Source: an uncultured Thermococci archaeon (GTDB lineage Archaea; Methanobacteriota_B; Thermococci; Methanofastidiosales; B48-G16). Taken from it: a stretch of 64,000 nt of DNA. The translations under genes and the position numbers were made by a program. Of the stretch, positions 1 through 11,002 are shown piece by piece. Positions within the stretch are counted from its first letter, which is position 1; each line of letters opens with the position of its first letter. Below the pieces are notes generated by a model, which saw only the letters and a list, made by a program, of their open reading frames with translations, ran no database searches and had not been told where the DNA came from. The stretch covers positions 1 to 64,000 of the forward strand of contig CAZQQT010000008.1 in the NCBI GenBank assembly GCA_964595645.1. The letters run 5' to 3'.

Positions 1-1
1 T

Positions 2-457
2 GGCTGTTGGGAGGGCTGCTGCGATCCCTGTCCGTGCAGTCATGATCCCGAGGTGCAGGAGTTGTTGAGATCTCTGGAAGCTGGAAAGAATAAAATTAAT
101 GAAAATAACGAGTTAATAGAGCGTCGAAAGGATGAACTTCGATCACTAAAAGAGGATATAGAAGATACTCTTGATAATAGAGAGTGGTATGGAAAAGATT
201 TTAAAAATCTATGGTCACTAAGAACTGTTTGGACAGCAATCAGAGAGGGGGTAAAAGCAGTAATAAAAATAGATATTGTTGTTGTGGGTATAGTAACGTA
301 TGCTGCAGGGAATGAAGTTCATCTTTACGAACAGAGAAAATCTATTGAAAATATCCCACCAGCAATAGAACGTTACGAAACTGAGAATAGAGAGTTACAA
401 AGACAAATAGATAATGTCACTAACCATATAAAAAGTACATGTCCCTGTGCAATATAG
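2..457 (+). CDS. 3' part of a Cys-rich protein with coiled-coil/hydrophobic-hairpin C-terminal cassette (putative polymorphic toxin); runs off left edge
   Basis: Frame is open from base 2 (GCWEGCCDPCPCSHDPEVQELL...) and ends STCPCAI; paralogous to 2055..2663. Confidence 0.6.
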   Translation, partial: GCWEGCCDPCPCSHDPEVQELLRSLEAGKNKINENNELIERRKDELRSLKEDIEDTLDNREWYGKDFKNLWSLRTVWTAIREGVKAVIKIDIVVVGIVTYAAGNEVHLYEQRKSIENIPPAIERYETENRELQRQIDNVTNHIKSTCPCAI

Positions 458-475
458 AGATATAGGAGGATCCGT

Positions 476-988
476 ATGAATATTGTAGAACTCTGGGAAC
501 GAAACAAAAAGAGAATATACCTCTCGTATGTGGCGATAGCGATCGTAGTTTTTGGACTGTTCATCTATCTTTTCTATAAAGGAACCTTACAATCGTTGTG
601 GTTTTGTCTTTTTGGATTTATTTTGTTAGTTGATATAAGAGAATTAATAAAAGAGCTAATAGATAACTGTGAAGAAAAGGAGAAACGTATGTTTTTTACC
701 TTTCCTTTCTGTGGGCTAATGATCTTGGCGTTATACGATGTAAAACATAATATTCTCCTTATACCATTATCTTTTTTCATTTATCTATATCTCATGTTGC
801 CATCTTTTGTGGAATATAAAGAGCAAGAAGATATTAAGACAGTAGTAGAGATTTTGGAATACTTGACATTTTTCTCCCTCATAATGTTTTTTAATTTAAT
901 TGATCTAAATAATACGATATATATAGTTTTTGCATGTTTAATAATCGTGATATTCATTCTTTTTGAGCATTTTCTCTCCACTCAGTGA
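476..988 (+). CDS. Multi-pass membrane protein, family A (putative immunity protein)
   Basis: Several hydrophobic segments; MNIVELWE.NKK.IYLSY and P.FVEYK motifs shared with 1566 and 2683 ORFs; AGGAGG RBS. Confidence 0.65.
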   Translation: MNIVELWERNKKRIYLSYVAIAIVVFGLFIYLFYKGTLQSLWFCLFGFILLVDIRELIKELIDNCEEKEKRMFFTFPFCGLMILALYDVKHNILLIPLSFFIYLYLMLPSFVEYKEQEDIKTVVEILEYLTFFSLIMFFNLIDLNNTIYIVFACLIIVIFILFEHFLSTQ

Positions 989-1117
989 TTGACGTGATTA
1001 TCTCTTTGCTAGCAGAACATTCACAGGAAGAATATGCTTGCGATATGACTATATTCTTTGAAGTTACATCCACACCACTCTACCTTGCTGCAAAAACGGT
1101 GAATTAGGTGATCAACA

Positions 1118-1528
1118 GTGAGATTTGAAAGAACACGGAGAAGAATTCTTTTATTTCTTTTATATATTTTTCTAATTGGATTTGCTATATTTGGGTGTTG
1201 GAGAATTGGCGATCTTCCTTGGATCGTAGAAGAGATGATGCTTCTTATTTTTTTGGAGTTATGGTTTCTAGCAGTTTCTGTGAGACAGGACGAAATATCC
1301 ATGATGGAGTTTTACGAATATACACTTTTGGGATGTGGGTTCTTATTTTACACTTTAGGAGAAGTCTGTGCAAAGATGAGATATCTCAGTGAAATTTACG
1401 GAGGGTATATTAAATTGATCGGAGTGATTCTTGCAATGATTGTAGGGGTAATGATCTTTGTAGGGACCCCGATTATAGGGTGGATTAAGGATAGAAAACA
1501 TAGAAAGAAGTGTAACAATGAGTACTGA
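1118..1528 (+). CDS. Multi-pass membrane protein, family B (putative immunity protein)
   Basis: About 4 hydrophobic segments; IFLI..W..D..WI and C.KM.YLSE motifs shared with C-half of 3252..4016. Confidence 0.6.
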   Translation: MRFERTRRRILLFLLYIFLIGFAIFGCWRIGDLPWIVEEMMLLIFLELWFLAVSVRQDEISMMEFYEYTLLGCGFLFYTLGEVCAKMRYLSEIYGGYIKLIGVILAMIVGVMIFVGTPIIGWIKDRKHRKKCNNEY

Positions 1529-1565
1529 ACAGAAAGAGATGTTCATGTGCACTGGAGTGATATAA

Positions 1566-2018
1566 ATGGGGAACATGAATATTGTAGAGTTATGGGAACA
1601 GAACAAGAAGATGATATATCTTTCATATATTGCGATAGCTCTCATCATTTTCGGGGTATACGTTTATGTGTTTTATCAATGGCTTTCTCCCACAAAGGAC
1701 CTGTGGCATTATGTTATTGTTTTTCTTCTGTTATCAAATATAGGGATGATGATAGATGGATATAAAAAAGAGCGGCAAGGTACTTACTATCCTTTTCCAT
1801 TACTTACTTTATACGTTCTAGGTGTAACATATGGGTACGTGAAAAACACGCTCCTCATACCCTCCTTCTTTCTACTCTACCTCTATGTACTATTTCCCCT
1901 TTTTGTCGAATACAAGGTAAAAGAGGAGATACAAGAGAAAAGAAAATGTATATCTAAGATCATTGGATTCTTTGCCCTGTTTTTTATCTTATTATGGTTT
2001 GCAGGTTATTACGGTTAG
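1566..2018 (+). CDS. Multi-pass membrane protein, family A paralogue
   Basis: MNIVELWEQNKKMIYLSY...FPLFVEYK; start may be 1575. Confidence 0.65.
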   Translation: MGNMNIVELWEQNKKMIYLSYIAIALIIFGVYVYVFYQWLSPTKDLWHYVIVFLLLSNIGMMIDGYKKERQGTYYPFPLLTLYVLGVTYGYVKNTLLIPSFFLLYLYVLFPLFVEYKVKEEIQEKRKCISKIIGFFALFFILLWFAGYYG

Positions 2019-2054
2019 GCATAATCAAATATCTAAGAAGAACGAGGGGCAGTC

Positions 2055-2663
2055 ATGAACATCGTGAAAATAACCAACAAAAATAGTAACGTCTACCAAC
2101 AGAATATAGAGTACTACTGCGTGAACGGTGATTGTGAATACACCGAGGAAGAGAGGGTGAAGGCATGGTGCGAGAACGGCTGTTGGGAAGGACACTGTGA
2201 TCCCTGTCCATGCAGTCATGATCCCGAGGTGGAGGAGTTGATAGACGATATAGCGTTGCAACAAGACCTAATAGATGCAGAAATAGAGTTCCTCGAAGAA
2301 AAAGAAGAAGAGGTCACAGATTTGATTTTTAAGATCAAAGAAGCATTTGAGAAAGAAAGTGAAAATGATACATGGGACTATGTTGTTGATACTATTTCAG
2401 TTATAGGTCTTTACATTGGAGCCGTATATACGGGTGGGACATTACCTGAAATACTAGCTCTAACATCTAGTGCTGTTATCACCGAATACAGCTTTATAGA
2501 AAAACATCCAGTAATTTACAAAGTACCTATGTATCAAAAGGAAATAGCTAGAATAGGATTTATAATTGATCACCATAAGAACATATTAGACTATCACAGA
2601 GATCTAAAAGAAGATTTTATTTCAAATCTTCATACGATATGTCCATGTGTTTTGGAGGATTGA
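2055..2663 (+). CDS. Orphan Cys-rich/coiled-coil/hydrophobic-hairpin cassette (putative toxin C-terminal module), no signal peptide
   Basis: GCWEGHCDPCPCSHDPEVEEL near-identical to the 2..457 ORF; divergent middle; ends TICPCVLED. Confidence 0.6.
   Translation: MNIVKITNKNSNVYQQNIEYYCVNGDCEYTEEERVKAWCENGCWEGHCDPCPCSHDPEVEELIDDIALQQDLIDAEIEFLEEKEEEVTDLIFKIKEAFEKESENDTWDYVVDTISVIGLYIGAVYTGGTLPEILALTSSAVITEYSFIEKHPVIYKVPMYQKEIARIGFIIDHHKNILDYHRDLKEDFISNLHTICPCVLED
2178..2240 (+). repeat. About 60-bp direct repeat of bases 2..64 (conserved cassette junction)
   Basis: ggctgttggga.gg...ctg.gatccctgtcc.tgcagtcatgatcccgaggtg.aggagttg in both places. Confidence 0.85.
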
Positions 2664-2682
2664 CAGGAAAATTAAATAAAAG

Positions 2683-3128
2683 GTGAAGAAATTTTTGAAC
2701 ATTGAAGAACTGTGGAATAAGTATAGGGGAACGGTATACCTCTCGTACGTTATAATAGCCGCCGTACTTTTGGGAGTGTATCTCTTTATTTTTTTCTCTT
2801 TTTCAGAGGCTGATCTTGCTCCAATAGCTCTTCTTTTGTTGGTTGTCGGATCGCTTTTAGGAAGGTATAACACTAAGAAATTTGAAAAAAATATTTTGTA
2901 TATATTTTTAGGATCTATCTTGATTTACATTTTAGTGTTAGAAGAGCTTATAAAGAATAATTTTCTTATATTACCGTTTTTTTTATCTATCTTTATGCAT
3001 TGTTTCCCTTTTTTGTGGAGTACGAAACTGCGAAAGAGCGGAAAGTGAAATTATTCGGATTGGCAAAGATTGTGGGATTTCTTGTTCTGTTTTGCATCTG
3101 GAGTTATTTTTTATATTATTATAAGTAA
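2683..3128 (+). pseudogene. Family A membrane protein frameshifted at a T8 tract (2977-2984)
   Basis: One extra T restores PFFFIYLYALFPFFVEYE...KIVGF...YYYK-stop (3128), matching paralogues 476 and 1566. Confidence 0.7.
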
Positions 3129-3251
3129 TGTATTTGATATCTATTAGAGAATACTCGTACCCATCGTCAAGAAGAGGAATAAAGAAAGAAGGAATGATTA
3201 TGAACTTTGAAAAAATAGGAAGAGAATTAATGATTTGCAGAGTGAATATAA

Positions 3252-4016
3252 ATGAAACCTGAACAGAAAAACTATATAAAACACTTTTGTTATTTGTTGA
3301 TAGGCATATTATTACTTATTTCTGCTTTCTACGATCTTAATAGGAGCGATTGGCTGATCTCACTATTATTTATATTTGCTGTATTTACTGATTTCAAGGA
3401 ACTTGAAAAAAGGGGTATTGCTTTTCTCGCAAGATTCATTTTGGTAATTAGCTTTCTTGTAATGTTAGATATACTGAGTATAAATGGTGTAGTTGATTTA
3501 ACTGATATATCGTATGGAGTTGTGGGATTTTTGACCATTTGCGGTTTTATAATATTTGAGTATTCTCTATCTAATACGGTGGTTAAACCAGAAGAAATAG
3601 AATGTCCATCTTTACCAACAAACGATCCACGAAATGACGATATCTACGAAAAAAAACTTTTTTTATTTCTTTCATCCATTTTTCTAATTGTGTTTCTCTT
3701 GTTTTGGGTCTGGAAACTACCAGATTCCCATTGGATCACAAAAAATATAGAACTTCTCGTATTTTTAGGTGTAGTCTGTTTGATGAGTATCTTACTCTCG
3801 AGAAAAAATCAAATTGCTAACGATGAGATATATACATATACGTTCTTTGTTCTTATTTTTCTCTCTAACGCTTTATGTGGGAAGGATGGCATTTGCGTGA
3901 AAATGGGATATCTTAGTGAAAGGAATGGGGAGTATCCCTGTTTTCTTGCACTAGCATTTATTTTATTCTTCTCGACGTATTTGTTTTTACGTTGGTTAGA
4001 AAGGAAAGATCATTGA
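3252..4016 (+). CDS. Multi-pass membrane protein; family A-like segment fused to family B domain
   Basis: VDLTD...IIFEYSLS resembles the 476 C-terminus; C-half resembles the 1118 ORF. Confidence 0.6.
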   Translation: MKPEQKNYIKHFCYLLIGILLLISAFYDLNRSDWLISLLFIFAVFTDFKELEKRGIAFLARFILVISFLVMLDILSINGVVDLTDISYGVVGFLTICGFIIFEYSLSNTVVKPEEIECPSLPTNDPRNDDIYEKKLFLFLSSIFLIVFLLFWVWKLPDSHWITKNIELLVFLGVVCLMSILLSRKNQIANDEIYTYTFFVLIFLSNALCGKDGICVKMGYLSERNGEYPCFLALAFILFFSTYLFLRWLERKDH

Positions 4017-4097
4017 TGTGTAGAAAGACGTATACAGAAATTTTATATTCTTTTCTTCGTTAAAAGCTTTTGAGGGCGCATAAGGAAAAAGATGCAG

Positions 4098-4733
4098 TTA
4101 CTCTTTTACCGTGATCTCGATCGTTCCTTTCTCAGTACCACTCAGTGAGTCTACAACTCCCGTGACCACGTTTTTCACCAGGTTGCTCACAAACCTATTC
4201 AATGGGATTGGCTTTCCATTCACACGTATCTCCGTGTCGGTGAGTTGCTGGCACTCACCAGGTGACGTTTCGCCGCGAATGATCCTCGAAGCCATCTCCT
4301 CACAGGTATACCCACACTGTCCACAGTTTTCATTGGGGAGTTTGAATCCGTAGTTCTCAATCTTCTCGATCAGCGCATCGATATCCTCCTGATCGGATCC
4401 GATGGCCAGATCGTCGTCGTACTCACCGCACGTGATCTTTGGAAAACTTCTGTTCTCCTTAAATCCCTCTACAAGGACAATATCTACATGGAGGTACGAG
4501 AGTATCTCTTCCAGTGTTTTTTCTTCAGGAAAGAAAATTCCAGACTTTTCTGGCGAGATAAATCCAGTCTGATACAGTGTAGAAAACTTCCGCGTATCAC
4601 TTTCTTTTTCATTGAACTCTCCTGCATGTTTTATTATCCCTACTGTATACGAATCGCTGAGTTTTTCTGCGAGTTTGAGTACAAGTGAGGACTTTCCAGA
4701 GTTTTTATATCCGACAATACCAATGACGTTCAT
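4098..4733 (-). CDS. mobB: Molybdopterin-guanine dinucleotide biosynthesis protein B with Fe-S domain
   Basis: GYKNSGKS P-loop, IKH, LVEGFK, NCGQCGYTC...C. Confidence 0.9.
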   Translation of the reverse strand: MNVIGIVGYKNSGKSSLVLKLAEKLSDSYTVGIIKHAGEFNEKESDTRKFSTLYQTGFISPEKSGIFFPEEKTLEEILSYLHVDIVLVEGFKENRSFPKITCGEYDDDLAIGSDQEDIDALIEKIENYGFKLPNENCGQCGYTCEEMASRIIRGETSPGECQQLTDTEIRVNGKPIPLNRFVSNLVKNVVTGVVDSLSGTEKGTIEITVKE

Positions 4734-4766
4734 AATCTTTTTATATCCTATACATTTATTAGAGTT

Positions 4767-5444
4767 ATGTCTCTTCCCTTTGCGTTCATAGGAGAAATTG
4801 CGGTCATTCTTCTGATTTTCGTAATCGCACTTATCATCTTCGGTGTAATATTATTTCTTCTCTCCTTTAAAACAGGCAGATATATCCTTCCAGGAGTTTT
4901 TTCGGGCATTGTAGATGCATTTTACTCTCCAATTCTATTTATTGTGGAATTAATAGGATTACAACCAAAGTATTTTAATTCTATTGTGGTAGATGTGAAG
5001 AACTCTATCAATATGAAAAATTTTAAGAAAATACCTCCCAAAGAGAGAGTCATCGTGCTTCCGCAATGTCTGCGATCCATCGACTGTCCTGCGAAGCTTT
5101 CTTCTGAGAAAGGGATAAAATGTGTCGAATGTGGACTCTGTTACATCAAAGAGTTCAAGGAAAAAACAGAAGCACTTGGGTATAGGGTATTTATTCTTCC
5201 AGGCGGGACGTTCGTCAAGAGAATTTTACAAAAGATCAAACCGAGAGCCGTACTGGGGGTGGCCTGTTTTACCGATCTCTTCGAAGGCATTCGAATATGT
5301 GAGGATGCGAAGATTCCCGTTCAGGGGGTGCTCCTCAAGACAACGGGCTGTGTGGAAACCATTGTGGACTGGGACGAAGTCTGGGAAAAGGTGCATTTAG
5401 GAGTTGATGGCAATGGAGTTCAAAATAGTAAAAAAACAGTTTGA
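4767..5444 (+). CDS. DUF116 family membrane-anchored protein
   Basis: LPQCLRSIDCPA...C..CG.C, PGG, GVAC..DL..G. Confidence 0.85.
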   Translation: MSLPFAFIGEIAVILLIFVIALIIFGVILFLLSFKTGRYILPGVFSGIVDAFYSPILFIVELIGLQPKYFNSIVVDVKNSINMKNFKKIPPKERVIVLPQCLRSIDCPAKLSSEKGIKCVECGLCYIKEFKEKTEALGYRVFILPGGTFVKRILQKIKPRAVLGVACFTDLFEGIRICEDAKIPVQGVLLKTTGCVETIVDWDEVWEKVHLGVDGNGVQNSKKTV

Positions 5445-6432
5445 ATTTTTAAATCCAATGAAGGATATGGAGAAAGAGACGCAGATCGTGGAGTACCGAG
5501 AGGATCCGCTTACAGGGATAACCTGTATCTACAACCCTGCCACCGCTGAGAAGGCGAAGAACTTTTACGGACCAACGGATAGAGACGCGTTGAGGGAGTT
5601 TGCAGAGAACACGAAAGATTCTTGCTTTTTCTGTCCTGAAAAACTGGAGAGCTCAGCGGCGCAGTTTCCCGAGATTGGAACGCTGAAGAAAGGAGAAGCA
5701 GTGCTTTTCCCCAACCTCTACGCACCCTACCACGATGCCGCAGTTATTGTGCTTACGGAGGATCACTTTCTGGATTTGCACGAGTTCACTTCGGAGATAT
5801 TTGAGAATGCGATCACCGTGGGCATCGATTATCTTCAGCGGCGGTACGAGGAGAACAGCATCGAGTACGGTGTCCTGGGTGGCAACTACCTTCCACCTGC
5901 CGGTGCGTCCATCGTGCATCCGCATATGCACGTGCTCTCTTCAACGACACCGTTTAGAATGCTACAGGCGATGGTGGAAAACACCGAACAGTACTACCAC
6001 GACCATGATCGGAATATCGTCGACGATATCCTCGAGGCGAAAGAACGATATATTGGAAAAATGGGAGACATGGATCTGTATGTTCCCTTTGCCCCCGTGG
6101 GAAACAATGAGATAGATGGTGTAATACGGAAACACAGCCTTCTCGAACTGACGGAGAGCGATGTGCAGGATATCGCCTCACTTCTCGTGACAGTATTTCA
6201 GTGGTACTATGAGAAGGGACTTTCGTCGTACAACTTCATGCTTTACTCCGGTGCACTGGATGGTAGCGATGAGCTCTACTGTGGTATCAAGATAATCTCA
6301 CGGCAGAATTTCAGCGAGTACTATATCAACGATATGTGGTATCTCTTAAAAATCCTTCAGGAGAGTTTAATCTTTGTGAGTCCGGAACAGACGGCAGAAG
6401 AGTTTAGGGAGGTACTGCAGCGGGGTAAATGA
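5407..6432 (+). CDS. Galactose-1-phosphate uridylyltransferase-like (GalT/HIT) protein
   Basis: EYREDPLTG, CFFCP, PNLY, GASIVHPHMH. Confidence 0.8.
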   Translation: MAMEFKIVKKQFEFLNPMKDMEKETQIVEYREDPLTGITCIYNPATAEKAKNFYGPTDRDALREFAENTKDSCFFCPEKLESSAAQFPEIGTLKKGEAVLFPNLYAPYHDAAVIVLTEDHFLDLHEFTSEIFENAITVGIDYLQRRYEENSIEYGVLGGNYLPPAGASIVHPHMHVLSSTTPFRMLQAMVENTEQYYHDHDRNIVDDILEAKERYIGKMGDMDLYVPFAPVGNNEIDGVIRKHSLLELTESDVQDIASLLVTVFQWYYEKGLSSYNFMLYSGALDGSDELYCGIKIISRQNFSEYYINDMWYLLKILQESLIFVSPEQTAEEFREVLQRGK

Positions 6433-6455
6433 TACTTTTTTTTTCGGATAGTTTT

Positions 6456-6487
6456 CATGTTAGTTACCTTCTTTGGTGACCAACATG
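6456..6487. promoter_or_regulatory. Imperfect 13-bp inverted repeat upstream of abiEi-like gene (candidate autoregulatory operator)
   Basis: catgttagttacc-N6-ggtgaccaacatg, 11/13 complementary. Confidence 0.45.
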
Positions 6488-6556
6488 GTTGAATATGCCG
6501 CGACTATAGTATACCTCATGCCCGTAGTAAAGTACAAAAGCGTAATGGAGGAATTA

Positions 6557-7120
6557 ATGGAAAAACCCGTCTTCACACCCCAAGACTTACGTGACAGAGG
6601 GATACCAAGCAATTACGCGAAGAAACTCCTCCATACCCTTGCGAAATCAGGAAAAATAACAAGAATTGAACGGGGAAAATATACATCCCTCAATGATGTA
6701 GTGGCAGTTGCTGGCCATATCACAGAGCCATGTTATCTTACACTCTGGACGGCAATGAATATTCGAAACCTGACTACCCAGATCCCCTTTTCTGTGGAAA
6801 TTGCCACGTCACGAAGACGATTTAATGAAAAAATTAGCTTCCAGGATACACCAATCCTTTTTTATACGGTGCCTCCTCGGATGATGTTTGGATATGAGTA
6901 TATCATTTGGCAAGAGGAAATACGAGTGCCTGTGGCCACTCCGGAAAAAATAGTGATCGATTCGTTGTACTTCGGAAAAATACTTGAGGAGGAAGTCTTG
7001 GACATAGTGAACGATACAGACAAAAAACGTTTACGGACTTACGCCACATTAACAAAAAAACAAGATATTATAGATAAAACGATGGAGTTGATAGAAAGAT
7101 GCTCACCCGGGAAGAAATAA
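6557..7120 (+). CDS. abiEi: Type IV TA antitoxin, AbiEi family
   Basis: N-terminal wHTH (LAKSGKITRIERGKY), CYLTLWTAM, TTQIP, ATPEK..IDSL; GGAGGA RBS before 6557. Confidence 0.85.
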   Translation: MEKPVFTPQDLRDRGIPSNYAKKLLHTLAKSGKITRIERGKYTSLNDVVAVAGHITEPCYLTLWTAMNIRNLTTQIPFSVEIATSRRRFNEKISFQDTPILFYTVPPRMMFGYEYIIWQEEIRVPVATPEKIVIDSLYFGKILEEEVLDIVNDTDKKRLRTYATLTKKQDIIDKTMELIERCSPGKK

Positions 7121-7845
7121 GAAAATATGCACATATGAGAAGGCTGAAACTAATTGATCAGATATGGAAGGATTATCTTCAGGATCTCTTACTCCATCTG
7201 CTTTACAGAAAGATACCAAACATGATATTTGGTGGGGGGACATCCATATGGAAAGTTTTTAAAGGAAATAGATTCTCAGAGGATATAGTCGGTTATGTGT
7301 CTGCGATACCAGAAGATCTACCTGATTATTTACAGAAAGAGCTTTCACTTCTTGGGGCTGATTGTACAGTACTAAAAAGTAAGAAAACGGCGAATATGCA
7401 CTTTCTCAAACTTGGACTTTCTCTCCCTACACATCATAGAGAAATCACACTGTCAGTGGAAATAATGAGTTCTTCACAGCCCGAAAGGACGGAACAGGTG
7501 ACACTCCATTCTCCATATCCTGATATTCCGCCTGTTGATATGATTGTACTGGCACGAGAGGAGATGCTTGTGAATAAGGTTGCTGCGGTGTATCACCGAA
7601 ACAGACCACGAGATGTATACGATATCGGCCTGCTTCTCGATATGGAGACGGCAATCGATATAGATCTTCTCAGAAAGAAGATTCCGGATTTTGATATGGA
7701 TAGCTTTGGAAGAGAGTTGCAGAAAAAACAGAAACGATGGAAAAGTTTAGAGCCGTTAGTCGTGACGTCTCTTCCACCATTCAAGAAACAGGTAAGATAT
7801 ATCCTTTCCTCCTTTCGAAAGGCAATATCACGAGATAATAAATAG
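7099..7845 (+). CDS. abiEii: Type IV TA toxin, AbiEii nucleotidyltransferase family
   Basis: FGGGTSI, RFSED, K..A...R.RPRDVYD; overlaps the antitoxin gene. Confidence 0.85.
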   Translation: MLTREEIRKYAHMRRLKLIDQIWKDYLQDLLLHLLYRKIPNMIFGGGTSIWKVFKGNRFSEDIVGYVSAIPEDLPDYLQKELSLLGADCTVLKSKKTANMHFLKLGLSLPTHHREITLSVEIMSSSQPERTEQVTLHSPYPDIPPVDMIVLAREEMLVNKVAAVYHRNRPRDVYDIGLLLDMETAIDIDLLRKKIPDFDMDSFGRELQKKQKRWKSLEPLVVTSLPPFKKQVRYILSSFRKAISRDNK

Positions 7846-7854
7846 AGGAGTATC

Positions 7855-8616
7855 TCATCGTCCCTTAATAATATCTCTCGGACTTTTCTTCTGTTTTTCA
7901 GACTCTTTTTCGGATGGTTCTTGGAATAAGACCTTCTGTTTGACTATTGAGAAGGCGTATGAGTGGTGATCGAGGACATCTGCAGTTACGTCGATTGTAT
8001 TATCAGGACTGAACCGAATGTTGATATCAAAAAGGTGGCGCAGTTTCTTCACCATGGATATTGTATCGTATGTTTCTGTGAGGGAAAGTACCGTTTGAAT
8101 ATCTAGTTTAGCGGTCTTTTTCAGATACTTTTCAAAAAACGTGTAGAAATTATTATGGAAGGCGAGATGGGTGATGGAATCAAAAAGAACAAGATCTATT
8201 TTTTTGAGGGACAACCCTGCATGGAGAATTTCCATGGGGAGAAAGAAGAGTTCACTTCCTTCCGGTACTTGGATGAAGAAGAGGTGAGAATAATTGTTGA
8301 TATTTCTCTTGAGAAGCATTCCTTTCTCTTCGATCCTGAAGGCGTCTTTTGATATCAACACGCATTTCTTTTGAGATCGTATAGATTCTAACAGTAGTTG
8401 TTTTCCGAATATTGTTTTTCCCACAGTTCTCGGTCCAGAAATTAAAATATTTTGGTTCTTGAGGATTTTTTCTGTGATGTTTTCCTCTGCTTCTTCAGGA
8501 AGTTCTGCTCTCTTCAGCGTTCCTCTTTTGAACTCGCTCACTATTCTATCGGCAGTTTTTTCTATATTCTCCTGTGAGAGATTTAGCCGTTCCATGAGTT
8601 TTTCTCGTGCTACCAT
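7855..8616 (-). CDS. RecA/KaiC(RAD55)-like P-loop ATPase
   Basis: ILISGPRTVGKT Walker A, LVLFDSIT Walker B; start overlaps pcm stop. Confidence 0.7.
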   Translation of the reverse strand: MVAREKLMERLNLSQENIEKTADRIVSEFKRGTLKRAELPEEAEENITEKILKNQNILISGPRTVGKTIFGKQLLLESIRSQKKCVLISKDAFRIEEKGMLLKRNINNYSHLFFIQVPEGSELFFLPMEILHAGLSLKKIDLVLFDSITHLAFHNNFYTFFEKYLKKTAKLDIQTVLSLTETYDTISMVKKLRHLFDINIRFSPDNTIDVTADVLDHHSYAFSIVKQKVLFQEPSEKESEKQKKSPRDIIKGR

Positions 8617-9230
8617 CCTTCCTCTCCTATTAACGGTACAAAGGCGCATCCACCGTATTTTTTTTCCTCAACTCGTTCCTTCAATGTTTTTTCGGCAACG
8701 ATAAGAGTGCAGTAGTACCGTTCTCCGACGGGGATGCATATCTTCCCTCCGATTTTCAACTGGTCTTTGAGGGGTTGAGGGATTTTGGGTGAGGCCGCCG
8801 TGACGATGATCCTGTCGTACGGTGCTTCTTCTTTGTATCCGAGGCTCCCATCCCCTATCACGATCTTCACATCGTAATCTGTTTTTTTTAGGTTTTCTCT
8901 GGCTGAGTAGGCAAGTTCCGGTATTCGTTCAATGCTGATGACGTTGTCGCCCACGATTTCAGCGATTAATGCTGCGTTGTATCCCGAGCCTGTTCCTATC
9001 TCCAGGACTTTTTGTCCCTCCTTTAGATCGGAAGCTTCAAGCATGATGGCGATCATTGAAGGAGCGGAGATTGTTTGACCGTGTCCTATCGAGAGGGGTC
9101 GATCATGATATGCTGATCCTCGGGCTCCCTTCGGCACGAATACCTTTCTATCCACCTTTTCAAACGCTCTCCTTACAGGTTCTGATTTTATATAGCCGTG
9201 TTTCACCAGGGAGCGTATCAGATTCTCCAT
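8610..9230 (-). CDS. pcm: Protein-L-isoaspartate O-methyltransferase
   Basis: GQTISAP, VLEIGTGSGY, APYDRIIVTAA, FVPLIG. Confidence 0.95.
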   Translation of the reverse strand: MENLIRSLVKHGYIKSEPVRRAFEKVDRKVFVPKGARGSAYHDRPLSIGHGQTISAPSMIAIMLEASDLKEGQKVLEIGTGSGYNAALIAEIVGDNVISIERIPELAYSARENLKKTDYDVKIVIGDGSLGYKEEAPYDRIIVTAASPKIPQPLKDQLKIGGKICIPVGERYYCTLIVAEKTLKERVEEKKYGGCAFVPLIGEEGW

Positions 9231-9279
9231 ACCTATACTATGAGCGAATGTTTTTATAATTTTTTAACCAGTATACTAT

Positions 9280-9654
9280 ATGTCAGAGCGGTGGAAACTC
9301 TTAGCATTGCTGCTCGATGAGGTAGTACTCGTTCTTCTCTATCTTGTTCTGCGGTTTCCCTTTGAATATTTTGTCGTGTTTATCTCGATAGTTGTAGCGA
9401 AGGATATTTTTGTCATACTCAAAGCGTGGAATATCTTTGAACAGCAGAGTCTGTTGGGCATGGAAAGTCTTATAAGTTGTGTAGGTGAAGTGGTGAGTGA
9501 TATCGATCCTTCGGGCCAGGTAAAGATCGGCAATGAGATCTGGCTGGCAGAAAGCGATGAGTTTATTCCTGAAGGCGAAAAGGCAATCGTGAGAGATACC
9601 GAGGGATTGGTGCTGAAGGTAGAAAAATATACAGGTGATGAGAATGAAGAATGA
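9280..9654 (+). CDS. NfeD family membrane protein
   Basis: N-terminal TM helices; G.V...IDPSGQVKIGNEIW.A OB-fold. Confidence 0.85.
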   Translation: MSERWKLLALLLDEVVLVLLYLVLRFPFEYFVVFISIVVAKDIFVILKAWNIFEQQSLLGMESLISCVGEVVSDIDPSGQVKIGNEIWLAESDEFIPEGEKAIVRDTEGLVLKVEKYTGDENEE

Positions 9655-11002
9655 TGGATGGTCGAAGCTTGATAAAAAAGAGGTATTTGAATTCTGTTCC
9701 GAGTACTGTGACTTTCTAAACGCGTGTAAAACGGAGAGAGAAGCTGTCGGGCATATTGTTTCGTTGGCGGAGAAATTCGGTTTTTCACCCGTGGAAAAAG
9801 GAGGAAAAAAAGTGTACGAAGTGAATAGAGGAAAATCTGTGATACTCGCTGTGAAGGGGAAAGAGGATCCTCGGGAGGGACTGAGAATTATCGGTTCCCA
9901 TATCGATTCGCCCCGGCTCGATCTGAAGCCCCACCCGCTCTACGAAGAAATAAAAGTGGGCCTCCTGAAGACACACTACTATGGAGGAATAAAGAAGTAC
10001 CAGTGGGTGGCCATACCGCTGGCCATGCATGGCGTGATCGTGAAGGAAACAGGGGAGAAAATAAATGTTGTAGTGGGTGAGGATCCAGAGGATCCCGTCT
10101 TTACCGTCTGTGATCTCCTTCCGCATCTCGCAAAAAAGGCGCAAGGAAAAAAGAAATTGTTTGAAGGGATTGAAGGTGAAGAGTTGAACATTGTGTTTGG
10201 CTCCATGAGCAAAGAGGATGAAAAAGAGAACAAGAGCACTGATAAAAAGAAAAAGAAACTAATAAAAAAGTTTATACTGGATCTGTTGAAAGAAAAATAT
10301 GATATAGAAGAGGAAGATCTCGTCTCCGCAGAGATAGAGTTTGTTCCCAGTTTCAAGGCTAGAGATGTGGGCATAGACAAAAGTCTCGTCGGTGCGTACG
10401 GACAGGATGACCGGGTCTGTGCGTTCACATCACTGAAGGCGATTCTCGAAATGGAAGATCCCGAGTATACCTGCGTTTTTATTGCTACAGACAAGGAAGA
10501 AGTTGGCAGTGATGGAGCCACGGGCATGAAATCAAAATTTTTTGAGAATTTTGTAATAAAAATGGTAGATTCATTGGAGTTACGGGATCTCGTCTCCGTG
10601 TTTGAGAATTCCAAGATGATCTCAGCGGATGTTGGTGCCGCACTGAATCCAACCTTTAAAAAGGTTCATGAAAAGCGCAATGCTGCGAAACTTGGACAAG
10701 GAGTTGCAGTAGAACGTTATACTGGTGCAGGAGGAAAGTACTCAACAAGCGAGGCAACTGCGGAGTTTACTGCAGAAATACGCCGCATTTTTAACAAAAA
10801 TAATGTCATGTGGCAAGCTGCAGAGCTGGGCAAAGTGGACGAAGGCGGAGGCGGAACCATCGCAAAGTTTTTAGCAGAGTACAATATGGATGTTATTGAC
10901 TGCGGTACGCCATTGCTGGGAATGCACTCTCCCTTCGAGGTGGCTTCGAAGGCCGATATTTTCCACACCTACAGAGCCTATAGATCATTTTACCACGAGT
11001 AA
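9644..11002 (+). CDS. M18 family aminopeptidase
   Basis: KTERE, SHIDSPRLDLK, YYGGIKKYQW, GQDDR, DKEEVGS, MHSPFE. Confidence 0.95.
   Translation: MKNDGWSKLDKKEVFEFCSEYCDFLNACKTEREAVGHIVSLAEKFGFSPVEKGGKKVYEVNRGKSVILAVKGKEDPREGLRIIGSHIDSPRLDLKPHPLYEEIKVGLLKTHYYGGIKKYQWVAIPLAMHGVIVKETGEKINVVVGEDPEDPVFTVCDLLPHLAKKAQGKKKLFEGIEGEELNIVFGSMSKEDEKENKSTDKKKKKLIKKFILDLLKEKYDIEEEDLVSAEIEFVPSFKARDVGIDKSLVGAYGQDDRVCAFTSLKAILEMEDPEYTCVFIATDKEEVGSDGATGMKSKFFENFVIKMVDSLELRDLVSVFENSKMISADVGAALNPTFKKVHEKRNAAKLGQGVAVERYTGAGGKYSTSEATAEFTAEIRRIFNKNNVMWQAAELGKVDEGGGGTIAKFLAEYNMDVIDCGTPLLGMHSPFEVASKADIFHTYRAYRSFYHE

Follow-up and report, generated by a model that had tools for sequence, protein, structure and literature searches.

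Positions 1 to 4016 of the window, the whole stretch of 64,000 nucleotides that was analysed, are best explained, we propose, as belonging to a polymorphic locus for a surface protein, of which they would be the variable 3' end. They comprise the exchangeable end of a carrier gene, a spare end and the genes for small membrane proteins that accompany them, in a layout like that of toxin and antidote genes (Table 1). The carrier, its terminal tip and the partner proteins are all undescribed, and only their arrangement is familiar, from bacterial toxin/antidote loci. By analogy, our best reading is that of a polymorphic toxin that acts on membranes, accompanied by membrane proteins for immunity, for which we put the chances at about even. 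A toxin-immunity array had already been suspected from the letters of the sequence, and this sequence-only reading finds support in the genome architecture: on the three points that it had singled out beforehand, the cassettes proved to be variable, the partners to co-vary with the tips, and the tip fold to be none of a known non-toxin family.

Both cassettes that it had recognised exist, and the near-identical junction reported between them is real and far beyond chance: positions 2-64 and 2178-2240 share 89% nucleotide identity (E 1e-16), and 2-64 also matches two further copies in contig C13 at 91-98% (E 4e-15 to 2e-25). Past the junction, the cassettes retain ~42% identity over 66 aa and none that is detectable thereafter, in line with the divergence described, and both end in the CPC motif previously noted (..STCPCAI in cassette 1 and ..TICPCVLED in cassette 2). 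Cassette 2 opens with its own ATG and its N-terminus is not hydrophobic, which agrees with the lack of a signal peptide claimed for it; its pre-junction block finds its match in the linker of carrier P0003. The GC content is 0.34-0.35 across positions 1-4000 versus 0.43 for the genome, bearing out the description of the region as AT-rich.

A family-A gene follows each cassette directly, after 18-19 nt (18 nt past the stop codon in the case of tip 1), as had been claimed, but with the correction that the one behind cassette 2 is split by a frameshift and is not intact. The product of 476..988 has no Pfam or NCBIfam match and no homologues outside this genome; a C11 tip of the same type as tip 1 (78% amino acid identity) also has a family-A gene downstream. 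The additional family A/B genes are likewise present, at 1118, 1566 and 3252, and are intact partner genes stripped of their tips. Family B, represented by the first, sits behind K-type tips in other contigs, and the product shows 62% identity to a C11 copy and 36% to the gene behind the tip of P0005. In the fusion at 3252, the N-terminal module matches the gene downstream of the C13 tip and the C-terminal module is of family B, with 54% identity to the gene behind the tip of P0005.

Table 1. Features in positions 1-4016 of the window.
Feature	Position	Strand	Remarks
Tip cassette 1, 3' end of a carrier gene cut by the contig start	2..457	+	Open at contig start
Junction of cassette 1	2-55	+	GCWEGCCDPCPCSHDPEV
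Tip domain of cassette 1	23-454	+	Helix, 22-residue hydrophobic segment, helix, terminal CPC
Family-A polytopic membrane protein, 170 aa, ~4 TM	476..988	+	Candidate cognate partner/immunity protein of tip 1
Family-B membrane protein, 136 aa, intact	1118..1528	+	No tip gene ahead
Scar of a third cassette, last codons only (..RKRCSCALE-stop)	1522..1560	+	~5 nt ahead of next family-A gene
Family-A membrane protein, 150 aa; stranded partner of a deleted cassette	1566..2018	+	40% identical to 476..988
Orphan cassette 2, 202 aa, own ATG, no signal peptide	2055..2663	+	
Cys-rich pre-junction block of cassette 2	2055-2198	+	Homologous to linker domain of full-length relatives
Junction of cassette 2	2178-2240	+	
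Tip domain of cassette 2	2199-2660	+	Ends in CPC
Divergent family-A partner of cassette 2, frameshifted	2683..3128	+	2683..3048, then other frame 3000..3128
Six-TM membrane protein, 254 aa, two-module fusion	3252..4016	+	No tip ahead

The full-length carrier predicted by the sequence-only reading does exist, and in its intact relatives (929-971 aa) the signal peptide is followed by a conserved body and a linker, and a CxC junction leads to the tip. For instance, the one in the sister genome has a beta-sandwich region and a helical domain after the signal peptide, then a Cys/PT/TSP3 linker, the CxC junction and a tip of 120-170 aa. Cassette 1 is the end of a gene for a protein of ~950 aa, predicted to be secreted. 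The TSP3 repeats (DxDxDGxxDxxD, Ca-binding) occupy positions 720-815 of the carrier profile, outside positions 1-4016, and match an OmpA-family protein (5wtl, E 1.5e-12) and COMP (E 4e-11); no other part matched any family in Pfam, NCBIfam or PDB. Apart from the Sec-type signal peptide, the undescribed beta-sandwich and helical body and TSP3, we found none of the trafficking or presentation modules sought (T5SS/FHA, Rhs, PAAR, LXG/WXG, PVC, MafB-N etc.), nor a releasing peptidase or a delivery machine, and the class-level genomes searched contained no relatives of the carrier. Synteny assigns the carrier of cassette 1 to contig C4, where the missing body of the gene most probably lies. The first 55 nt are common to the start of C8 and the end of C13, and the first 54 nt to C4 and C6, indicating a repeat collapsed between these contigs; the assembly break falls inside a repeat common to two such loci.

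In sliding-window comparisons, identity between carriers of different metagenomes stays at ~100% for 500-720 aa and then falls abruptly to 13-48%. For P0006 and P0007 it is ~100% over 720 aa and 13-38% beyond, for P0003 and P0007 100% over 500 aa and 22-48% beyond, and for P0004 and P0005 ~80% and then 10-17%. Tips only 13-38% identical are borne by carriers of ~100% identity (500-720 aa), and cassettes do vary among close relatives. The orphan modules that had been postulated are standalone cassettes devoid of a body, found in the window (2055..2663), C13, C11 (two), C2, L027/L042, L040 and L041, each of which starts inside one of several carrier linker blocks, to which its 5' end is homologous. 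Genes of conflict occur nearby, with AbiEi/AbiEii within the window and HepT beside the tip and partner pair of C2. Recombination has also left its traces at the loci: tips paired with partners as orphans, the scar of a cassette and partner paralogues in tandem, of which the sister genome has five, all of family C, behind a single tip.

The tips share a plan of 120-170 aa, with two helices of ~45 residues flanking a Gly-rich hydrophobic centre and a CxC or C at the end. Three Cys are the only invariant columns across 13 tips (10-28% identity), and the proposed Cys clamp pointed out earlier is the sole invariant feature; the N-terminal CxC and the C-terminal CxC or C would clamp the helices at their base. 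The model of the cassette 2 tip (pLDDT 79, pTM 0.68, with the two long helices at 93-98) is a generic antiparallel helical hairpin that matches no known non-toxin family; a Foldseek search gave no match at E <= 0.001, and fold comparisons scored Z 9.2 for the IpaB N-terminal region and Z 8.1 for colicin Ia, both under the noise of ~13 for helical models. The tips of group II have a central uncharged Gly-rich core of 28-48 aa with a Pro/Gly turn, and cores of this hairpin length are confined to that group; those in the window, of group I, have 13-22 aa (13 and 19 residues for the two by the no-charge measure). Because uncharged cores of 13-19 aa are short, a true transmembrane hairpin is doubtful for the window's tips, and the membrane-inserting hairpin of the sequence-only reading suits group II better than the group I tips for which it was proposed. 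No tip reached threshold in Pfam, colicin, ApoL and SseC-type families included. The tip profile retrieved 14 proteins among 1.84 billion, and the only matches from outside the family were weak (E 1e-5 to 4e-4), to the ApoL pore-forming region (PF05461) and an SseC-type T3SS translocator (PF04888). Both of these insert into membranes, and the matches suggest a membrane action for the tip, although they may reflect composition alone. In colicins Ia, E1 and A, apolipoprotein L and SseC/IpaB, amphipathic helices lie on either side of a hydrophobic hairpin, also helical, that inserts into the membrane, as we propose for the tip; the likeness is a design analogy and not family membership.

Of the adjacencies that could be classified, 15 in at least 10 contigs, every one pairs a tip class with its own family of downstream membrane gene, which substantiates their expected co-variation. 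Tips of type c1 precede family A (2/2), K-type tips family B (3/3), E-type tips family E (2/2) and group IIb tips family G (2/2), and group II tips are followed directly by family C in six of six cases and in one more with a family-B gene intervening. The start of the partner gene ranges from 25 nt of overlap with the tip gene to 19 nt past its stop codon. Since adjacent genes co-vary by linkage, this pattern by itself does not prove binding. All the partners are polytopic membrane proteins, as would be expected for immunity to a membrane-acting toxin; colicin immunity proteins are also small polytopic membrane proteins.

We propose that the carrier is a Sec-exported protein of ~950 aa whose beta-sandwich and helical body would be joined to the terminal tip by a flexible linker with Cys-rich, PT and Ca-binding TSP3 segments. 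The two antiparallel helices, clamped at the base, would hold a Gly-rich hydrophobic or amphipathic centre at their far end and, once in a lipid membrane, the tip might form pores or depolarise neighbouring archaea that do not have the matching partner. The small polytopic protein encoded downstream would bind the cognate tip inside the membrane and neutralise it, thus acting as immunity protein. Promoter-less orphan tip and partner pairs further downstream could replace the active tip through recombination at linker or junction blocks, and every exchange would leave scars and stranded partner genes. The AT-rich composition and the nearby AbiEi/AbiEii and HepT genes also speak for this reading. 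On the other side, the gene for the partner of orphan cassette 2 carries a frameshift, the orphan tip P0017 has no partner gene downstream, and the C-terminal hairpin, being hydrophobic and part of a Sec substrate, could be a plain anchor in the producer's own membrane. Toxicity is argued from analogy, because homology of tip, carrier or partner to known toxin, immunity or delivery families was not detectable.

The main rival to the toxin reading, possible but rather unlikely in our judgement, is a non-lethal allorecognition or kin adhesion, in which the tip would be a polymorphic ligand and the membrane protein its allele-specific receptor, with matching pairs signalling 'self' or mediating adhesion. 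Parallels exist in IdsD/IdsE of Proteus and in the adjacent, co-varying TgrB1/TgrC1 genes of Dictyostelium. IdsD and IdsE of P. mirabilis, also encoded by adjacent genes, bind each other in a heteromeric complex, and their variable subdomains determine which alleles can pair (PMC4471559); however, IdsD is exported by a T6SS and the Ids locus has neither the carrier/tip organisation nor an array of orphan cassettes. Architecture, mosaicism and tip-partner co-variation would be the same under allorecognition, with which the absence of an enzymatic or known toxin domain is also consistent, as are weak, sub-threshold matches of the TSP3 repeats to MtsC and TraB, myxobacterial proteins of cell cohesion and outer-membrane exchange. 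Yet the five tandem family-C paralogues and the intact partners without tips (1118, 1566 and 3252) fit a rule of keeping every antidote better than a one-to-one code of ligand and receptor, and the hydrophobic Gly-rich cores suggest insertion into membranes more than surface binding.

We consider improbable that the hairpin is a variable anchor holding an adhesin or S-layer-associated protein in the cell's own membrane, with the partner as docking or assembly factor and the variation due to drift or to evasion of viruses for which the protein is a receptor. The Sec signal peptide with a C-terminal hydrophobic segment, a body resembling surface proteins (although only generically) and the failure to find a release site would accord with it, but an anchor needs no stored spares with their own partners, sharp recombination junctions or tandem partner paralogues, and evasion of viruses would vary the distal exposed body, which is the conserved part. 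Least credible, with very little chance of being correct, is a device for membrane fusion or exchange between cells, whose compatibility the partner would gate: its appeal lies in geometry, as the clamped stalk of antiparallel helices bears its hydrophobic centre at the far end, recalling the internal fusion loops, flanked by Cys, of viral fusion proteins. The protein shows no similarity to fusexins or other fusogens, however, and fusogens are not known to combine polymorphism with orphan cassettes.

To our knowledge, polymorphic toxin systems are considered an essentially bacterial phenomenon, and archaeal competition and kin recognition are largely unknown. Every genomic hallmark of such a system is present here, namely a mosaic carrier, tip and partner cassettes, orphans, scars and partner arrays. 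Relatives of the carrier, of the tip and of at least five partner families are confined to a single uncultured lineage of euryarchaea, which argues for an independent invention of the same evolutionary logic. Tentatively, and at somewhat below even chances, we suggest a contact-dependent competition or allorecognition born in archaea and independent of bacterial polymorphic toxins, which would dispense with known secretion nanomachines: a surface protein exported by Sec would deliver its helical hairpin, clamped by Cys or metal, to the membrane of a neighbour, where the polytopic partner would read the allele and neutralise a cognate tip, and non-cognate tips would form pores. The family is very narrow, from uncultured organisms, and its function is proposed by analogy; the tip is possibly a new minimal membrane-active module and, being small (120-170 aa), confidently modelled and marked by a simple CxC...CxC feature, offers a tractable entry to archaeal cell-cell conflict.

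The bacterial CdiA-CT/CdiI, Rhs and MafB systems have the same constant 5' body, recombining 3' tip and sharp junction, the same standalone tip and partner cassettes, of which one crossover imports both genes, and the same downstream strings of partners and scars (PMC3482391). They differ in that the locus described here has no known trafficking domain, pre-toxin peptidase, toxin fold or immunity superfamily, and is archaeal and apparently endogenous to its lineage, whereas the archaeal systems recorded by Zhang et al. (2012) are rare, nested within bacterial ones and import-like (PMC3482391). Likewise, the T7SS membrane-depolarising toxins TspA, with TsaI, and EsxX of Staphylococcus aureus (PMC7456083, PMC9484751, PMC12258717) have a variable C-terminal domain that acts on membranes, as is proposed here, with a glycine zipper in EsxX. 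Downstream of these toxins lie membrane-protein immunity genes, candidates for which follow our tips, often as non-identical tandem paralogues shaped by recombination; the five family-C paralogues recall these tsaI strings (PMC9484751). TspA and EsxX depend on LXG/T7SS delivery and have no Cys clamp, in contrast to the Sec signal peptide, beta-sandwich/helical body and CxC...CxC hairpin found here, and there is no sequence similarity. Among archaea, the operon of VARTIG in Thermococcales also opens at its 5' end with the gene for a large protein that bears a signal peptide and a hypervariable, recombining C-terminus with conserved Cys; shorter homologues of the C-terminal part and small, mostly transmembrane downstream proteins complete a layout like that of polymorphic toxins (PMC8416519). 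Its published description sets it apart, with a variable Ig domain, a hydrophobic segment and a DNNxxxGG motif instead of all-helical tips ending in CxC or C.

An ORF map drawn over positions 1-8000 of the window bears out the arrangement proposed by the sequence-only reading: two cassettes that share a near-identical junction and then diverge, both terminating in CPC, with a membrane gene 3′ of each and further ones in between, in an AT-rich region (GC of 0.34-0.35, vs 0.43 genome-wide). The junction of ca. 63 nt is 89% identical between the cassettes (E 1e-16), and contig C13 of the same genome carries two more copies with 98% and 91% identity; the cassette proteins share GCWEG.CDPCPCSHDPEV and then decay rapidly, to 42% identity over 66 aa. 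The family-A membrane gene 3′ of cassette 2 is split by a frameshift.

Coordinates of the cassette array and of other features discussed in the text
Feature	Location	Position	Strand	Basis or remark
Cassette 1, 5′-open ORF	window	2..457	+	ORF map
Family-A membrane ORF after cassette 1	window	476..988	+	ORF map
Membrane ORF	window	1118..1528	+	ORF map
Scar of a deleted third cassette, last codons ..RKRCSCALE-stop	window	1522..1560	+	directly before the family-A gene at 1566
Family-A membrane ORF	window	1566..2018	+	ORF map
Cassette 2, 202-aa ORF	window	2055..2663	+	ORF map
Family-A membrane ORF following cassette 2	window	2683..3048	+	ORF map
Membrane ORF, two fused membrane modules	window	3252..4016	+	ORF map
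MobB-FeS, DUF116 and 342-aa (DUF4931-like) genes	window	4098-6432		syntenic with L024 11565-13900
AbiEi-like and AbiEii genes	window	6473-7845	+	overlapping genes
Orphan tip with extended C-terminus	L009 (G000:C13)	7448-8251	-
Split carrier copy	L010 (G000:C11:58000-68000)	~7745-10000	-
Gene of carrier P0001	L019	8856-11732	-	residues ~458-560 in text
Lone group II tip with family-C partner, beside a HepT-like ribonuclease gene	L038 (G000:C2:84112-87462)	80-418 and 1456-2279		HepT-like gene: PF01934
Family F membrane gene	L040	139-486
Family F membrane gene	L026	5814-6179

Contig C8 begins with the window; its genome (G000) spans 1.97 Mb in 14 contigs and is 99.96% complete. The end of C13 bears, on the other strand, the same junction as the start of C8, and the first 55 nt of both contigs are identical; likewise, C4 and C6 have their first 54 nt in common and each starts with an ORF of 668-669 aa that runs off the contig, carries a signal peptide and ends in ..NYAWTVRYQTIN. 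These shared ends indicate a collapsed repeat node missing from the assembly, at which the carrier bodies of C4 and C6 are joined, through a shared unassembled linker, to the tip arrays of C8 and C13; the linker between '..RYQTIN' (C4, C6) and 'GCWEG..' (C8, C13) was absent when searched for in the assembly. A glycosyltransferase gene next to the C4 body and the MobB/DUF116/342-aa genes following the window array are both 68-71% identical to genes flanking an intact carrier in the metagenome contig L024. From this synteny we provisionally assign the C4 body to the C8 array. The idea that the '..RYQTIN' end corresponds to the region preceding the junction in orphan tips was rejected, as that region matches the Cys-rich linker domain instead. 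On C11 lies a third carrier locus, whose body is interrupted by at least two frameshifts and spread over at least three reading frames; the locus still has its own tip, the membrane gene coupled to it and another three orphan tips, and represents either a decaying locus or assembly errors.

The full-length carrier gene predicted by the sequence-only reading was found intact in relatives, with a product of 958 aa in the sister genome G001 and five more of 929-971 aa in a collection of 5.8 billion proteins (their sources being several metagenomes and another genome assembly). In an AlphaFold model of the carrier (pLDDT 62), residues 34-402 form beta-sandwich domains and residues 404-681 a domain made up of helices only; a disordered linker (686-842) then leads to the helical tip. 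Within this linker lie Cys repeats of the CGDGxC type, a stretch of Pro/Thr, and Ca-binding thrombospondin type-3 (TSP3) repeats, which match PDB sequences at E 1.5e-12. These TSP3 repeats were the only part of carrier, tips and all partner families with a Pfam or NCBIfam match above threshold, and the only one recognised by PDB sequence profiles; Foldseek with the full-length model gave generic beta-sandwich matches alone, and none of the four resources identified the body. The family has a very restricted distribution: of 41 related genomes, those that carry it all belong to the window's genus, apart from fragments in the sister genus, and a search of genome contigs with the carrier alignment matched the sister MAG only. 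Nowhere in the carrier are invariant residues packed more densely than at ~458-560 of P0001 in the helical domain (blocks SAxNHxYM, ASQRE, FPEEV and KEKRIL). This stretch matches no known family and may be where the body has its functional core, with a role for instance in oligomerisation or receptor binding.

Carriers from different samples are mosaics. For instance, identity between P0006 and P0007 is ~100% over 720 residues and only 13-38% thereafter; between P0003 and P0007 it is 100% over 500 residues and then 22-48%, and between P0004 and P0005 it drops from ~80% to 10-17%. Tips are therefore variable among close relatives, as had been anticipated, and so was their co-variation with the downstream membrane gene. 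The gene directly following a tip, which begins anywhere from a 25-nt overlap to 19 nt downstream, always encodes a polytopic membrane protein whose family tracks the tip class: c1-type tips (window, C11) are followed by family A, K-type (C13, P0005, P0018) by family B, E-type (C11, P0007) by family E, group II (G001, P0003, P0006, C2 and the loci L041 and L042) by family C, and group IIb (P0004 and its orphan) by family G. Family C has a duplicated GRLxIYK-type motif. A family-A search in the 5.8 billion proteins, word-indexed and of limited sensitivity, retrieved only the query itself, and a complex prediction of tip 1 with its family-A protein scored 0.00, the fold of the partner being itself uncertain, so that it speaks neither for nor against binding.

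Tips and partners alternate in arrays of up to three pairs (after P0004), and G001 contains five tandem family-C paralogues. Orphans start inside conserved linker blocks (the Cys-rich YRDYYC-type domain, the GECPP+PT linker, TSP3 repeats and the DSDNDGWCD block), which are the expected recombination substrates. Several orphans show peculiarities. One on C13 continues beyond the usual CPCALE terminus for 56 residues of unrelated sequence, has no membrane gene downstream, and overlaps at its start with a truncated family-B gene. Contig C2 holds a lone tip and partner pair, far from any carrier and adjoining a HepT-like ribonuclease gene; the terminal Cys of this group II tip is replaced (end ..TRGGSG), and the family-C gene that it overlaps is 75% identical to one of the five paralogues of G001. 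A further small membrane family, F, is 70% identical between two samples and is encoded upstream of an orphan tip of the P0017 type, after which no partner gene follows; here, the gene order may be reversed or the last partner may have been lost.

When 13 tips are aligned from the junction CxC through to the C-terminus (identity to the first sequence 10-28%), three columns alone are invariant: both Cys of the junction and one Cys at the end. Group I tips, including both window cassettes, have a CxC at each end, and group II tips combine the CxC with a terminal Cys and, in most cases, another Cys in mid-chain. The confident model of the cassette 2 tip (pLDDT 79, pTM 0.68) shows helices at 9-54 and 104-147 (pLDDT 93-98) with short low-confidence helices in between; the hits from Foldseek and VIA-align did not rise above noise, being antiparallel coiled coils and four-helix bundles of a generic kind. 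Because the best of these matches are antiparallel hairpins spanning the full model, the two Cys motifs are expected to come together at the hairpin base, where the putative clamp would be either a disulfide pair or a tetra-Cys metal site. Tip centres are rich in Gly/Ala/Ser; those of group II comprise 28-48 uncharged residues, a hairpin length, in which small-xxx-small motifs are numerous and Pro/Gly makes a turn. The window tips have uncharged cores of only 13 and 19 residues, with a 22-residue Kyte-Doolittle segment in cassette 1 and a 41-residue moderately hydrophobic one in cassette 2.

A profile of the 13 tips retrieved 14 matches from 1.84 billion representative proteins, ten of them family members; the weak rest includes an SseC-type T3SS translocator and two ApoL proteins, whose match falls in the Pfam ApoL region; we take this region to be pore-forming. 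These resemblances would be analogies of design, possibly of composition only. Against PDB sequence profiles, the tip gave nothing beyond noise from coiled coils (Rpt3; AopB at E 0.12), and a word-indexed search of limited sensitivity found no longer proteins bearing the cassette 2 junction.

By analogy, the tip would be a membrane-acting polymorphic toxin that its cognate partner neutralises within the membrane; this is the likeliest reading, and we give it an even chance. In its favour count the locus architecture, the membrane nature of all partners together with the hydrophobic Gly-rich tip centres, the retention of tip-less partner genes, the tandem paralogues, and the parallel with TspA/TsaI and EsxX (PMC9484751, PMC7456083, PMC12258717). 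Against it, no homology to any toxin was found with Pfam, NCBIfam, Foldseek or PDB profiles, nothing resembling a device for release or delivery is apparent, and the tips of the window itself are just modestly hydrophobic. Allele-specific recognition without killing, comparable to IdsD/IdsE (PMC4471559), is the leading rival, though a rather unlikely one; that the tip is a variable anchor in the cell's own membrane, with a docking partner, seems to us improbable. A fusion or exchange device is hardly credible.

In polymorphic toxin loci, cassettes are toxin-immunity pairs and a single crossover replaces both genes (Zhang et al. 2012). The sequence-only reading had recognised this layout, and the mosaicism, pairing, arrays and orphans of the locus match that definition and logic. 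Unlike known polymorphic toxin systems, however, it lacks any known trafficking, processing, toxin or immunity domain, and because of this it is probably not a member of a described family (the archaeal-toxin survey of Makarova et al. 2019, mBio, might include a relative). The nearest archaeal analogue in organisation is VARTIG of Thermococcales, whose variable unit is an Ig domain (PMC8416519) instead of a helical tip.

A methanogen or ANME host was rejected, since mcrA is absent from the 99.96% complete genome. The conserved genes following the window array are also found in L024, where RPA-like, RadA and pyroglutamyl-peptidase genes lie between the carrier and MobB; this synteny around a differing insert places the cassette array in a variable slot of a conserved neighbourhood. 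About 2.5 kb beyond the array, an AbiEi antitoxin-like regulator gene (PF13338, E 2e-9) overlaps that of an AbiEii nucleotidyltransferase toxin (PF08843, E 4e-19), forming a type IV toxin-antitoxin pair.
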